Assembly (NCBI GenBank): GCA_963836755.1
Contig: CAWIKF010000002.1
Coordinates: 2,112,001-2,176,000, forward strand
Length of the DNA: 64,000 nt
From: an uncultured Verrucomicrobiae bacterium
GTDB taxonomy: Bacteria; Verrucomicrobiota; Verrucomicrobiia; Chthoniobacterales; Chthoniobacteraceae
Reading direction: 5' to 3'
Each line of letters opens with the position of its first letter. Within the stretch, counting starts at the first letter, position 1. The notes below the pieces were generated by a model. The model was not told where the DNA came from and did no database searches. It worked only from the letters and a program-made list of their open reading frames with translations. The translations under genes and the position numbers were made by a program. Of the stretch, positions 15,479-21,009 are shown piece after piece.

Positions 15479-15517
15479 AGCCGATTGACTCGCCTTCGCC
15501 TTCCATTATCGTCAGCG

Positions 15518-15606
15518 AAATGCGGGGGCGCCGTTTGGCTGAGACTTCGGTGAGTGCCGAAGAACCCCTTGAACCTGATGCGGGTCATGCCGCCGAAGGG
15601 AGCAAG
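15518..15606 (+). ncRNA. TPP (THI-box) riboswitch aptamer
   Basis: GGGG..CC...GGCTGAGA...ACCC.TTGAACCTGAT.CGGGT.ATGCC..CG.AGGGA consensus directly upstream of thiC. TTGACT -35-like hexamer at 15485. Confidence 0.95.
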
Positions 15607-15610
15607 GTCC

Positions 15611-15640
15611 AGCCACGCACTCGCGTGGCTTTTTCTTTTT
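15611..15640 (+). terminator. Intrinsic terminator (TPP riboswitch expression platform)
   Basis: AGCCACGC-actc-GCGTGGCT hairpin followed by a T-tract, between the aptamer and the thiC start. Confidence 0.85.
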
Positions 15641-15648
15641 AGGACATT

Positions 15649-17615
<1,967 letters not shown>

Positions 17616-17660: not shown

Positions 17661-20477
17661 ATGGCGAAACTCCGAGTGCTCGCTAGCGGATCAACTCCAT
17701 CTGCGCGCTCGCAGAAGCGGGGAAAGCTTTTTGAAAGCTTGATGACGGACGTGTTCAGGCGTTTCGGCTACACCTTCAATGGGACGGCGAGCACTAATTA
17801 CTCCGGGATGGAGATAGATATTGATGGCATTCACACAGCTACCAACTTGCCACTTTATGCGGAGTGCAAATGTTACGAGTCAGAAGTTGACTCTCCCAAA
17901 CTACAGGCATTCTTCGGAAAGTATGTTGCTCTTTGGATGAAGGACAATCGGGCACATGGGATTTTTGTCGCGATCCCAGGCATCAATCCCCACGCGAAGG
18001 GATTTTATCGCGACAACTGCGAGGCGAATCCAAAGCTAACGCTTCGGCTTTACCAAGAAGACGAGGTGCTCCAAGCATTAATTGATTCCGGCAAATTATC
18101 CCACCCTTCAACGGTCCCCAAATGCATCCCGCTCGACGTGGGATCGGCGGGCGAACAGTTGACGTTATCAACCGAACTAGGGATTTTCGTGGTTCAATTC
18201 ATTATCCCCACTGGTAGCGCTATCGCCTCACACTTTGCACTATTTGACGCGCGCGGTCAGTTTCTGACGGACCGCGGCTCTATCGAGACCCTAATCGACC
18301 TAGAGCCGGAATTGAAAGCGTTCGAATTCGTATCGCTTGGACCAGAACCACTGATAACTCCCGCCCGAAGCGCGGAAGTGCCTGAAACAATTGTTGAAGT
18401 CAAAGGTAGCTCGTCGTGCTTCGAGTTTCAGTTTCCAGCCTCTCCCGAACATTTCGTGGGCCGCACGAATTTGCGAGGCGAGGTTAAAGACTTCGTTGCT
18501 GACGTTGTGGCCCGGCGAACCGCTGCGAGAGGATTACTTTTTGAAGCCAATTCAGGCTGGGGCAAGAGTTCCGCAGTCCTTTCTTGCGCAGAACATCTTC
18601 GTGGAGTTGGGCATTACTCGGTTGCGATCGACTCTCGCTCGGCGTCGTCCTCTCAATTCATTCTGCGGGTTGTCCAGCACACTGTTCAGGCCCTTCTGGT
18701 TCAGGGCATTTCTCTCAATGGCGCTGACAGCCAGATTTCCGGATTCGATAGTGCGGCGGAAATCCTAGTTAAAATAGGCCAAGAGCTTGCACGACGCGGA
18801 AAGCTACTTGTGATCTTTTTAGATCAATTCGAGAATTTGTTCTTCTTACCCGACGCCTTCAAGCGGATAAGGGACCTTTTCCTTAAGGTAAGCAATGCGG
18901 AGACTAATGTAGTGTTTGGTTTCTGTTGGAAGACAGACCTCGTTGGACTGACTAACGAATTTCCATATCAGCTCCGCGATTCGATTAGGACAGTTAGTCG
19001 GGTCGTTCAGTTGGAAAAGTTCACAGAAGCGGAAACAAGCGAACTTCTGAACAAGCTAAGTGCGGAAATCGGTGCGCCCTTACGAAAAGACCTTCGTTTT
19101 TTCCTTTCCGAGTTTTCACAGGGCTACCCTTGGCTGCTGAAAAAGCTCTGCGCTCATGTAAAATCACAGCGAGAAGCAGGGACGCCACAGATCGCAATCG
19201 CGAATGGACTCCTAAATGTGGAGCAACTGTTTCAAGAAGACTTGAACGGCCTTTCCCTTCAACAGGAAGAAGCTCTTCGCCGAATCGCTAAGCTGGCTCC
19301 GATAGCTATAGCGGATTTGGGTGACGAACTAAGCCCCACCGTCCTTCATAGCTTGATTGATCGGCGTTTGGTCGTGCGTATCGGAACAAAGTTGGACATC
19401 TATTGGGACATCTTCCGTGACTTTCTCAATACGGGTCGAGTTCCAGCTCAAGAGCAATACATCCCTCGACTTGGGACGCGAAGTGTATATCGGGCCTGTA
19501 AGATTTTGGCGGACGCGGGCAAAGCCATCTCAGTTCAAGAACTAGCTACGCGCGCGAAGGTAAGCTCTCAATCGTTCTACAACGTTGCGCACGAGTTTCG
19601 CATGCTTGGCCTTGCTACGATATCCGGCGAACTGGTGTCGTTAAATCCTGCTCTAGCTGCGGCGGCGGATTTTCAGGCAGCATTTCGCGCTTACCTCAGC
19701 GACAAGCTGAAGCGGAATCGTTTAGTTCTGTTGATGCTCGATAAGTTGACTGTCGAGCCTGACTTAAGTGTAGAGCAGATCGGACAGTTTCTCATGAGTA
19801 GCTGCCCATATATTTCGGCATCGGCGTCGAGTTGGGAGGATTACTCGGATATCTTTTGCGACTGGCTGGACGCCGGTGATTTGGCCATTCACGACCGTCG
19901 TGGGAAGAGACTTCGGCGTTATCAACCAGGCACTGAAATCCGGGAGCGACATTTTTCCCGTCTTACCCGGCGAGGGGGAACCAGCGTGCTTCAAGTTCAC
20001 TACGGCCCGGTGGCGGCCGTGGCAAAAGCCCTCGCGCAGATTCTTCATGGTGGAAAATTCGCTTGGCCTCAGATGGGGCCGAGCACCCGACAAAAAGCCC
20101 TGCTTGTCCTCGAGGATTTTGGCTATATCACCCGAAAATCGGGATCTATTACTGTGCTATTGACGCTGAAGCCTTTTGGGCAGCCGGATTTTGATGTCCC
20201 AAAAGCTTTGGGAGATGCCGCGTTAAAGATTGCGTCATTCCGCGAGTTTATAGGCATTCTTTCCAATGACACTGGGAAAAAGAAAAGTCACTTAGAGTTA
20301 GGACGCTTGTTGATGGTGGGTATGAATTCTGAATGGAGCGATGGCACCGCTCAGACAACGTCCAAAATTCTGATGGACTGGGCGCGGCATACAGGTCTTG
20401 CGCGAGGACCTTACGCTAAGTTCGTCCAAAGAAGTGCAAGCGAAGCGGGTTTTACAGCGCAGGCACCACTTTTGTGA
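17661..20477 (+). CDS. Mrr-like restriction endonuclease - STAND/AAA+ NTPase - winged-helix protein (putative defence)
   Basis: N-terminal GKLFE...EIDI...AECK PD-(D/E)XK motif; FVGR, Walker A ANSGWGKSS, Walker B IFLDQFE, GYP motif. Visibly more AT-rich than flanking genes. Confidence 0.8.
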   Translation: MAKLRVLASGSTPSARSQKRGKLFESLMTDVFRRFGYTFNGTASTNYSGMEIDIDGIHTATNLPLYAECKCYESEVDSPKLQAFFGKYVALWMKDNRAHGIFVAIPGINPHAKGFYRDNCEANPKLTLRLYQEDEVLQALIDSGKLSHPSTVPKCIPLDVGSAGEQLTLSTELGIFVVQFIIPTGSAIASHFALFDARGQFLTDRGSIETLIDLEPELKAFEFVSLGPEPLITPARSAEVPETIVEVKGSSSCFEFQFPASPEHFVGRTNLRGEVKDFVADVVARRTAARGLLFEANSGWGKSSAVLSCAEHLRGVGHYSVAIDSRSASSSQFILRVVQHTVQALLVQGISLNGADSQISGFDSAAEILVKIGQELARRGKLLVIFLDQFENLFFLPDAFKRIRDLFLKVSNAETNVVFGFCWKTDLVGLTNEFPYQLRDSIRTVSRVVQLEKFTEAETSELLNKLSAEIGAPLRKDLRFFLSEFSQGYPWLLKKLCAHVKSQREAGTPQIAIANGLLNVEQLFQEDLNGLSLQQEEALRRIAKLAPIAIADLGDELSPTVLHSLIDRRLVVRIGTKLDIYWDIFRDFLNTGRVPAQEQYIPRLGTRSVYRACKILADAGKAISVQELATRAKVSSQSFYNVAHEFRMLGLATISGELVSLNPALAAAADFQAAFRAYLSDKLKRNRLVLLMLDKLTVEPDLSVEQIGQFLMSSCPYISASASSWEDYSDIFCDWLDAGDLAIHDRRGKRLRRYQPGTEIRERHFSRLTRRGGTSVLQVHYGPVAAVAKALAQILHGGKFAWPQMGPSTRQKALLVLEDFGYITRKSGSITVLLTLKPFGQPDFDVPKALGDAALKIASFREFIGILSNDTGKKKSHLELGRLLMVGMNSEWSDGTAQTTSKILMDWARHTGLARGPYAKFVQRSASEAGFTAQAPLL

Positions 20478-20508: not shown

Positions 20509-21009
20509 ATGAGCACGGACCTCATCCACCCTGCCGTCCGCATCGGGCATGTGCATTTGAAGGTGGCGGACTTGGAGCGGGCGCTTTCGTTTTACCGCGA
20601 TGTGCTCGGGTTTGAAGTGACGCAGCGGATGGGAAAGCAGGCGGCGTTTCTTTCGGCGGGCGGGTATCATCATCACATCGGGCTCAATACCTGGGAGAGC
20701 GCGGGTGGGCGGGCGCCGGCGCCGGGGACGACGGGGCTGTATCACCTGGCGATTTTGTATCCGACGCGGGCGGAGCTGGGCGATGCGTTGCGGCGGCTGA
20801 TGAAGGCGGGCATTCCGCTCGAAGGCGCGTCGGATCACGGCGTGAGCGAGGCGCTTTATCTGCGCGACCCGGATGGCAATGGCGTGGAGCTGTATTGGGA
20901 TCGGCCCATGGAGGAATGGCCGCGCACGCCGGAGGGCGAGCTGGCGATGTTCACGAAGCCGCTCGACGTGGAGTCGCTTTTACTGCTCGTTCCCGAAGCG
21001 CTACGCTAA
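20509..21009 (+). CDS. VOC/glyoxalase-family protein (catechol 2,3-dioxygenase-like)
   Basis: IGHVHLKVADL, AGGYHHHIGLNTW, GLYHLA, DHGVSEALYLRDPDGNGVELY. Confidence 0.92.
   Translation: MSTDLIHPAVRIGHVHLKVADLERALSFYRDVLGFEVTQRMGKQAAFLSAGGYHHHIGLNTWESAGGRAPAPGTTGLYHLAILYPTRAELGDALRRLMKAGIPLEGASDHGVSEALYLRDPDGNGVELYWDRPMEEWPRTPEGELAMFTKPLDVESLLLLVPEALR

Follow-up and report, generated by a model that had tools for sequence, protein, structure and literature searches.

A single-gene nuclease–STAND protein with a duplicated winged-helix tail, a putative DNA-triggered defense nuclease, beside thiC in an uncultured Verrucomicrobiae bacterium

Gene organization and domain architecture

We have analyzed a gene at positions 17661–20477 of a 64,000-nt stretch of DNA (the window, from whose first letter positions are counted) from an uncultured Verrucomicrobiae bacterium (assembly GCA_963836755.1, contig CAWIKF010000002.1, positions 2,112,001 to 2,176,000). 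The gene joins an Mrr-like nuclease, a STAND NTPase and a winged-helix (wH) tail in one chain. Our preferred reading, with a probability of about 0.5, is that the product would be a one-gene, ATP-gated defense nuclease triggered by a feature of foreign DNA, as its sequence and predicted structure suggest. The open reading frame (ORF) lies on the plus strand, has an ATG start and encodes an intact 938-aa protein; it begins 45 nt past the thiC stop at 17615, a spacing that an earlier note on the sequence had given correctly. The gene is single-copy in the host genome. Its GC content of 0.47–0.54, against 0.58–0.66 in the flanks on both sides, agrees with the description in the same note as compositionally foreign. 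The flanking genes are thiC and a glyoxalase-family gene (Pfam); neither is a methyltransferase, and the remark that no DNA-methyltransferase gene is adjacent thus stands. At the gene borders, no promoter or terminator signal rose above shuffles. No RNA data set is listed among the public runs, and the four runs examined leave the gene uncovered, which says nothing either way. The parts of the gene are as follows.

17661..20477, plus strand: whole gene, with Mrr-like nuclease, beta domain, STAND NTPase and duplicated two-winged-helix module (ORF, translation, Pfam, model)
17661..18095, plus strand: Mrr-like PD-(D/E)xK nuclease, residues 1–145, catalytic E25/D53/E68/K70 (Pfam Mrr_cat, AF1548 fold match, conservation)
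18123..18326, plus strand: small acidic beta-sheet domain, residues ∼155–222 (model; median net charge −5 among relatives)
18390..18464, plus strand: linker FE(Y/F)QFPASP..FVGR, residues 244–268, directly N-terminal to the NTPase (top conservation in the protein)
18465..19448, plus strand: STAND NTPase, residues 269–596, with nucleotide-binding domain (NBD; Walker A AxSGxGKS, Walker B DQFE), GxP helical domain and winged helix (Pfam nSTAND1, fold matches, invariant residues)
19452..19931, plus strand: first two-winged-helix module, residues 598–757, with a FokI/BpuJI/BspD6I/BrxA-type recognition fold (VIA-align; PF09821 in relatives)
19983..20405, plus strand: second, diverged two-helix-turn-helix copy, residues ∼775–915, with a basic RRGG linker ahead (hhalign, model pLDDT 93, conservation profile)

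All motifs quoted in the earlier note are found in the translation: E25...D53...E68-C-K70 in the nuclease, and FVGR (265–268), ANSGWGKSS (296–304), DQFE (388–391) and GYPWLL (488–493) in the NTPase. Its assignment of the N-terminus to an Mrr-like PD-(D/E)XK nuclease is confirmed by a Pfam Mrr_cat match (residues 21–118, E 8.9e-8), by a fold match to AF1548 (1y88; Z 11.1, rmsd 2.7, 109 aligned) and by the retention of D53, E68 and K70 in 173, 173 and 170 of 174 full-length proteins, respectively. The central STAND NTPase with its GxP motif is likewise upheld: Pfam nSTAND1 matches residues 261–470 (E 2.3e-6) at 27.9 bits, just above the cut-off of 27.1, and G301, K302, D388 and E391 are invariant in 174/174 full-length proteins. 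The note had missed that Ala replaces the first Gly of the Walker A motif, as it does in 141 of the 174 full-length relatives.

The full-length AlphaFold2 model (pLDDT 84, pTM 0.69) lays these parts out as nuclease (1–145), beta domain (∼155–222), STAND NBD, helical domain and winged-helix domain (WHD) to ∼596, and tail. Pfam, motifs and model together provide all the hallmarks of a STAND protein, namely a P-loop NBD with Walker A and B, a GxP helical domain and a WHD. The fold search ties STAND with ORC/Cdc6/BrxC for the NTPase (BrxC Z 15.1, ORC2 and PAB2304 Z 14.2, Avs3 Z 13.4). For the beta domain there was no usable Atlas match, and the whole-model fold search returned NTPase matches. Linker 244–268 has a mean pairwise identity of 0.75, as compared to 0.33–0.59 for other parts of the protein, and from its sequence we infer a candidate regulatory latch.

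The winged-helix tail

The earlier note had described a helix-turn-helix (HTH)-like C-terminus without TPR or WD40 repeats, and prediction bears this out: the tail modeled alone with AlphaFold2 (pLDDT 93) folds into four HTH/winged-helix units, with no TPR or WD40 array. The HTH-like segment ISVQELATRAKVS lies at 623–635, and two blocks that the note had called similar lie at 724–741 and 892–913. The tail halves are homologous (hhalign pairwise probability 97%, E 2e-11, 138 columns), so these blocks mark a duplicated two-wH module, a real internal duplication. Unit by unit, hhalign pairs A with C (92%) and B with D (94%), the four cross-pairs reaching 33% or less. PF09821 was matched in 49 of 66 relatives.

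We searched the tail fold against 48,161 chains with VIA-align. The top five include Nt.BspD6I (Z 9.9, rmsd 3.6, 154 aligned), BrxA (Z 8.8, rmsd 4.0, 150 aligned) and FokI (Z 8.6, rmsd 3.8, 153 aligned); the BpuJI binding domain (Z 8.0, rmsd 3.8, 152 aligned) and 3bhw (also Z 8.0) follow, SspB scores Z 6.6, and single MarR-type wH matches score Z 7.1 or less. BrxA is homologous to the FokI and BpuJI DNA-binding domains and to SspB (PMC12839542), and FokI and SspB have been linked in the same structural way (PMC10853773). Each Z is moderate; we give more weight to the fact that four of the five top rows belong to what is one structural family according to PMC12839542. These matches to BrxA/SspB, like those to the ORC/Cdc6-type ATPase, hold at the level of fold, at 6–16% identity. 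The Foldseek search that the earlier note had proposed retrieves wH proteins for the tail; BspD6I has the highest query TM-score, 0.34.

Charge and conservation point the same way as the fold. Units A, C and D are net positive in 77–79% of 173 relatives, as compared to only 1–10% for the nuclease, beta domain and STAND-WHD, and polar or basic residues of the recognition helices are conserved (N641 97%, T724 95%, T896 94%, K902 88%, R909 87%). The model thus supports a C-terminus shaped like a DNA-recognition module, and DNA sensing by the wH tail appears plausible.

Several observations weigh against DNA reading by the tail. Z scores of 8–10 are close to what helical domains can reach by sharing a common arrangement, and the fold search really assessed the first wH pair only. 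Unit B, the second wH, is net basic in just 49% of relatives; at two positions where 77–79% of relatives have Arg, the query carries His644 and Asp730. No SRA, PUA or DpnI-type wH reader is among the best 25 of 55 Pfam families in the relatives, nor do the query's own Pfam matches include an SRA, PUA/EVE/YTH or DpnI-type wH modification-reader domain. Foldseek, moreover, ranks the wH arrays of UFL1 and SelB first for the tail, and these we take to bind protein or RNA (SECIS RNA stands in entry titles).

This last ranking favors an Avs-like abortive infection system, in which the tail would bind a phage protein (a DNA mimic or DNA-binding protein), the STAND module would oligomerize and the Mrr-like domain would degrade host and phage DNA non-specifically. 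Pairwise identity fits such a sensor, too: the tail diverges faster (0.33–0.38) than the STAND core (0.46–0.59). A Foldseek search with the whole model ranks Avs3 and Avs4 first, at a low TM of ∼0.2. The basic tail matching DNA-recognition folds speaks against an Avs-like protein, as does the absence of a TPR, WD40 or FGS sensor from the models, and we consider that explanation, the strongest competitor of our reading, possible though rather unlikely.

Comparison with known systems

The order of effector, STAND module and sensor is that of Avs and bNACHT proteins; Avs3, Avs4, Avs7 and bNACHT25 likewise carry an N-terminal nuclease, a STAND NTPase and a C-terminal sensor in one gene. The effector of Avs4 is Mrr-like. 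The Mrr-like effector of bNACHT25 (10.1101/2022.07.19.500537) and the shared domain order suit the Avs-like alternative. Avs proteins differ in their TPR, WD40 or FGS sensors, as compared to four winged helices (∼320 aa) here, and in effector swapping: none of the 60/60 untruncated long representatives of the present family has exchanged its nuclease for a TIR, SIR2 or protease effector. The protein is thus, by its model, a STAND protein laid out like an Avs but lacking the TPR sensor. The characterized bacterial STAND receptors considered here sense proteins, mostly via TPR-like sensors.

BrxA with BrxB/BrxC in BREX, and SspB with SspC, resemble this protein in combining a BrxA/SspB-like two-wH module with a BrxC/ORC-like ATPase; such parts co-occur in multi-gene systems (PMC12839542, PMC10853773). 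Our gene instead encodes both parts and a nuclease as a single chain with two copies of the module, and genes for a methyltransferase, PglZ, BrxL or sulfur modification are missing from its vicinity. The type IIS enzymes FokI, BpuJI and Nt.BspD6I have a recognition module of the same fold and, separate from it, a PD-(D/E)xK domain; here the order is reversed, an NTPase stands between, there are two modules and there is no cognate methyltransferase. The linked cognate methyltransferase of type II(S) restriction-modification (R-M) systems is similarly absent: neither flanking gene is one, and the homolog loci described below show no conserved methyltransferase partner.

Database searches retrieved no known system. 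The protein has no NCBIfam match and, by sequence, no PDB match below E 0.5; its C-terminal profile finds only weak SmtB/MntR/MarR matches in the PDB. Running PADLOC, another check proposed in the earlier note, matched no system over the length of the query or of 28 relatives, giving short nuclease or HTH matches only and no Avs model; the PADLOC 2.0 profiles used date from 2023 and do not include newer Avs types. The largest survey of STAND proteins (Lee et al., 10.64898/2026.01.04.697583, also PMC13581612) clustered only sensors of at least 400 aa, so that the ∼320-aa tail would fall below its cut-off; its main tables may nevertheless list the family as a clade. Full-text literature searches retrieved no description of a nuclease–STAND–winged-helix architecture, and the text consulted in 10.1101/2022.07.19.500537, PMC8195603, 10.1101/2025.09.30.679545 and 10.64898/2026.10.19.760177 does not describe it.

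Family and distribution

One homolog search returned 420 proteins, of which the best 120 are 44–60% identical to the query and nearly all full-length. The C-terminal profile (322 positions) retrieves 677 clusters at 50% identity; among the best 150 of these, 62 representatives reach at least 780 aa, 60 with the same nuclease and two starting inside or after it (N-terminal truncation). A relative is encoded at 230 places in GTDB genomes, and the 80 loci that we fetched span Acidobacteriota, Chloroflexota, Desulfobacterales, Actinomycetota, Pseudomonadota, cyanobacteria and archaea; orthologs are present in cultured Streptomyces, Arthrobacter and Pseudomonas. Judged from these sequences, the family is a widespread, fixed nuclease–STAND–(FokI/BrxA-like)x2 architecture. 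A FastTree tree of 64 rows, which excludes 24 redundant, broken or partial loci and is descriptive only, has two main clades and places the query beside unnamed proteins, then Acidobacteriota. The family matches 15 records of a plasmid collection. There was no tblastn match among 50,697 phage records; a blastn search of E. coli with the DNA of an Acinetobacter homolog gave no match either, at the DNA level, where distant relatives could escape. In one relative (P0243), an additional ∼90 aa precede the nuclease at the N-terminus; we take this extension to resemble an effector-associated (EAD) adaptor domain.

In the host order, a protein profile finds the gene in 1 of 201 genomes, the host itself, and the gene's DNA has no match in 40 relatives of the host. 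A sample of the order Desulfobacterales has it in 3 of 151 genomes, all three from one family (that of G041; L040, L037 and kin), where it is near-core, in 47/52 genomes. Such retention argues for an enzyme of low cost to the host. It also counts against our reading, as near-core status fits, and keeps open, a non-defense role.

The protein might accordingly be a DNA-processing enzyme for repair, replication restart or mobile-element competition that is spread by mobile DNA. Besides near-core status, the Desulfobacterales loci share a downstream neighbor gene and have a gene GC near that of their flanks, and the NTPase fold has the ties to ORC/Cdc6 given above. Elsewhere, however, distribution is patchy, as the counts for the two orders show, and the gene is broken in 6 of 80 loci. 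Its GC is below that of the flanks in 52 of 71 loci. We regard this non-defense explanation as improbable, also in view of the gene neighborhoods.

Neighborhood of homologs

We scanned up to three genes per side at 57 loci (285 proteins; from the 80, 21 redundant Desulfobacterales and two loci without neighbors were dropped), together with a far set of 148 genes more than 6 kb away at 51 loci. Defense and toxin-antitoxin (TA) genes, classed by hand at E 1e-7 or better, make up 38/285 near and 7/148 far genes, an about threefold difference (Fisher p 0.005, or 0.013 with one doubtful far gene; the loci are not independent). The defense-island check suggested in the earlier note thus gives an enrichment, which goes against a non-defense role. 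At least one defense or TA neighbor lies within three genes in 23 of the 57 loci; that the other 34 have no recognized one is a further point against our reading. About 16 loci contain integrases, relaxases, transposases or pSAM2-type RepSA, and the many loci in integrative or conjugative elements favor the non-defense alternative. In seven actinomycete loci (L050, L059, L066, L071, L073, L074 and L080), the homolog adjoins GntR-UTRA and/or NUDIX genes, with pSAM2-type RepSA in L073 and L080; we presume these homologs to be cargo of integrative conjugative elements (ICEs).

All-against-all ORF clustering of the 80 loci revealed no conserved partner gene outside Desulfobacterales. A methyltransferase lies within three genes in 5 of the 57 loci (type IIG-like in three, type III in one, type I-like in one); at L026:8107-16091, the homolog sits inside a type III R-M locus, between mod and res. 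The combination of pglZ, brxC and a modification enzyme (PglX or PAPS reductase) that marks BREX and Ssp loci is absent beside our gene and from the 433 neighbors scanned, a subset of the genes, at the 57 loci.

These results bear on whether the protein could be a sequence-specific ATP-dependent restriction enzyme with an unlinked protective methyltransferase, or a BREX or Ssp add-on acting in trans. Its FokI/BpuJI/BspD6I-type recognition fold and its BrxA-like and BrxC-like parts would suit either role. Neither a conserved methylase nor pglZ/pglX or ssp/dnd appears among the scanned neighbors, however, and a gene that moves alone between phyla would be lethal without its cognate methylase; we think such an enzyme very improbable.

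Methylase content of carrier genomes

An enzyme that cuts DNA with Dam- or Dcm-type methylation would be expected in carriers without such methylases. We examined 50 of 57 other carrier loci, one per genome, excluding small contigs and two Desulfobacterales: a C5 methyltransferase is encoded in 26/50 and a D12/Dam-family enzyme in 16/50, with strong Dam-family matches in the intact carriers L005, L025, L036 and L048. The host genome encodes C5 methyltransferases and no D12 methylase. In the near-core Desulfobacterales family, C5 and D12 enzymes are found in 4/52 and 3/52 genomes, as compared to 42/151 and 36/151 in the order, which makes the family about fourfold poorer. As a general rule, exclusion of methylases is rejected: it is present in this one family and contradicted by the 50 independent carriers.

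It is thus improbable that the protein is an ordinary type IV enzyme restricting DNA with host-type methylation (Dam-like m6A or m5C). Type IV enzymes (Mrr; DpnI/HhiV4I-type) do resemble the protein in having Mrr_cat and no cognate methylase, and in sometimes adjoining R-M loci, as the gene does in the five loci above; a weak PADLOC mREase_IV match (E 4e-4) covers the nuclease part only. Also on that side are the host's lack of a D12 methylase, the methylase-poor near-core family and the possibility of a narrow methylation sequence context. Yet that depletion is a single lineage contrast, alike for both methylase classes and not absolute, and both classes are common among independent carriers, including C5 enzymes in the host itself. 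Type IV enzymes differ further in lacking the STAND switch; the tail here is FokI/BrxA-like and not DpnI-like (best 25 of 55 Pfam families), as compared to wH-fusion m6A-dependent nucleases such as DpnI/HhiV4I (PMC11037411), and the present family co-occurs with Dam-family and C5 methylases. Since such methylases are common in carriers, restriction of ordinarily methylated DNA is not supported. The interpretation in the earlier note therefore survives in part: a stand-alone nuclease–STAND protein, distinct from TPR-bearing Avs, defense-associated and with a tail shaped for DNA recognition, is retained, whereas Mrr-type cutting of ordinarily methylated DNA is not.

The thiC slot

The gene occupies a variable slot with the following borders.

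15514..17615, plus strand: thiamine pyrophosphate (TPP) riboswitch (15514–15618) and thiC (from 15649) with a +1 frameshift near 16110, upstream of the gene and on the same strand
17474..17614, plus strand: thiC 3′ end, left border of the slot (this ∼140-bp piece recurs as displaced copies)
20509..21009, plus strand: glyoxalase-family gene, right border of the slot (Pfam; follows different cargo in same-genus G002)

A different gene lies between the same thiC and glyoxalase in G002. The thiC slots of other relatives hold CBASS (G018), methylase–restriction pairs (G024, G006), an NsnA/PD-T4-2-like gene (G028), PDC-M07 (G005) or TA-type cargo, namely Phd and nucleotidyltransferase/HEPN genes (the latter in G027 and G001). 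Defense or TA-type genes fill the slot in 7 of 25 relatives fetched, five of which were chosen for repeats or close kinship; among the other 20, unselected, just three have recognized defense cargo, which counts against our reading. In several relatives, and once in the host, displaced ∼140-bp thiC ends precede defense or TA cassettes within tens of bases. These copies (L093:6417-6557; L095; L096; L097, with five, one very short; L098, with three; L099; L100) have 5′ boundaries that cluster around a single point (within about 50 bp, for most of them within 20 bp). The pattern suggests that cassettes accrete in tandem at an att-like thiC site. No integrase was found among the cassette genes scanned after displaced thiC ends, and among the matches listed no paper describes thiC as an integration site. 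The variable cargo and displaced thiC ends make this position a defense hotspot, which supports, though it does not prove, a defense role; a slot shared with known defense systems is also unfavorable to the non-defense alternative.

The host carries one such copy in a low-GC island (∼50 kb) that has phage/ICE-like genes and lies some 840 kb from thiC (L093, G000:C2:1284000-1298000). It holds the thiC 3′ fragment, an NsnA/GmrSD-like and RiboL-PSP-HEPN pair, 80 bp from the start of the glyoxalase gene, and a type ISP R-M gene, and its contents are a whole thiC–glyoxalase slot from another strain. Four lower-GC genes that directly follow thiC in relatives and have no PADLOC match (L094:478-2019, minus strand; L104:5009-5941; L120:802-2811; L121:3755-5644) are further candidate defense genes. 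The frameshift in thiC (15649–17615), located in a G run, is probably a sequencing error because contigs of relatives do not have the extra base. No terminator-like site separates the nuclease gene from thiC, so the TPP-riboswitch transcript may read through into it.

Proposed mechanism and implications

Summed over all readings that involve defense, a defense role is very likely. Under our preferred reading of a DNA-triggered nuclease, the STAND module would keep the nuclease off at rest, possibly via linker 244–268, until both wH pairs bind, on incoming DNA, a feature absent from host DNA. We would favor a phage-type base modification as the trigger, with about half the weight of the DNA-reading hypothesis, ahead of a structural feature of DNA, for instance ends or replication intermediates (about a third), and, third, a rare or paired sequence. 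By analogy with other STAND/ORC-type ATPases, DNA binding might then drive nucleotide exchange and oligomerization, and the clustered Mrr-like domains would cut DNA, chiefly the bound molecule. A methyltransferase would be unneeded because host DNA would not present the trigger. We infer as much because a protein that combines a fold for reading sequence with an obligate DNase can do without a methylase only if host DNA lacks the trigger or the nuclease is gated. Gating is proposed on account of the STAND module and two precedents: binding of its ligand causes Avs7 to exchange ADP for ATP and to form tetramers, which enables DNA cleavage (10.64898/2026.01.04.697583), and ATP controls how BrxC self-associates and binds DNA (PMC13326643).

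More tentatively, we suggest that the family may be a prokaryotic NLR-like receptor with a DNA ligand, in which a BREX/FokI-type reader signals through a STAND switch to a nuclease, giving methylase-free restriction of a conserved non-self DNA mark or structure in bacteria and archaea, near-core in one sulfate-reducer family. How BrxA/SspB-like modules and ORC-type ATPases cooperate is unresolved in BREX (PMC13326643); the protein, if read correctly, would offer a one-gene model of that cooperation. With a DNA reader of the restriction-enzyme type as its sensor, it would also broaden NLR-like immunity to include DNA triggers.

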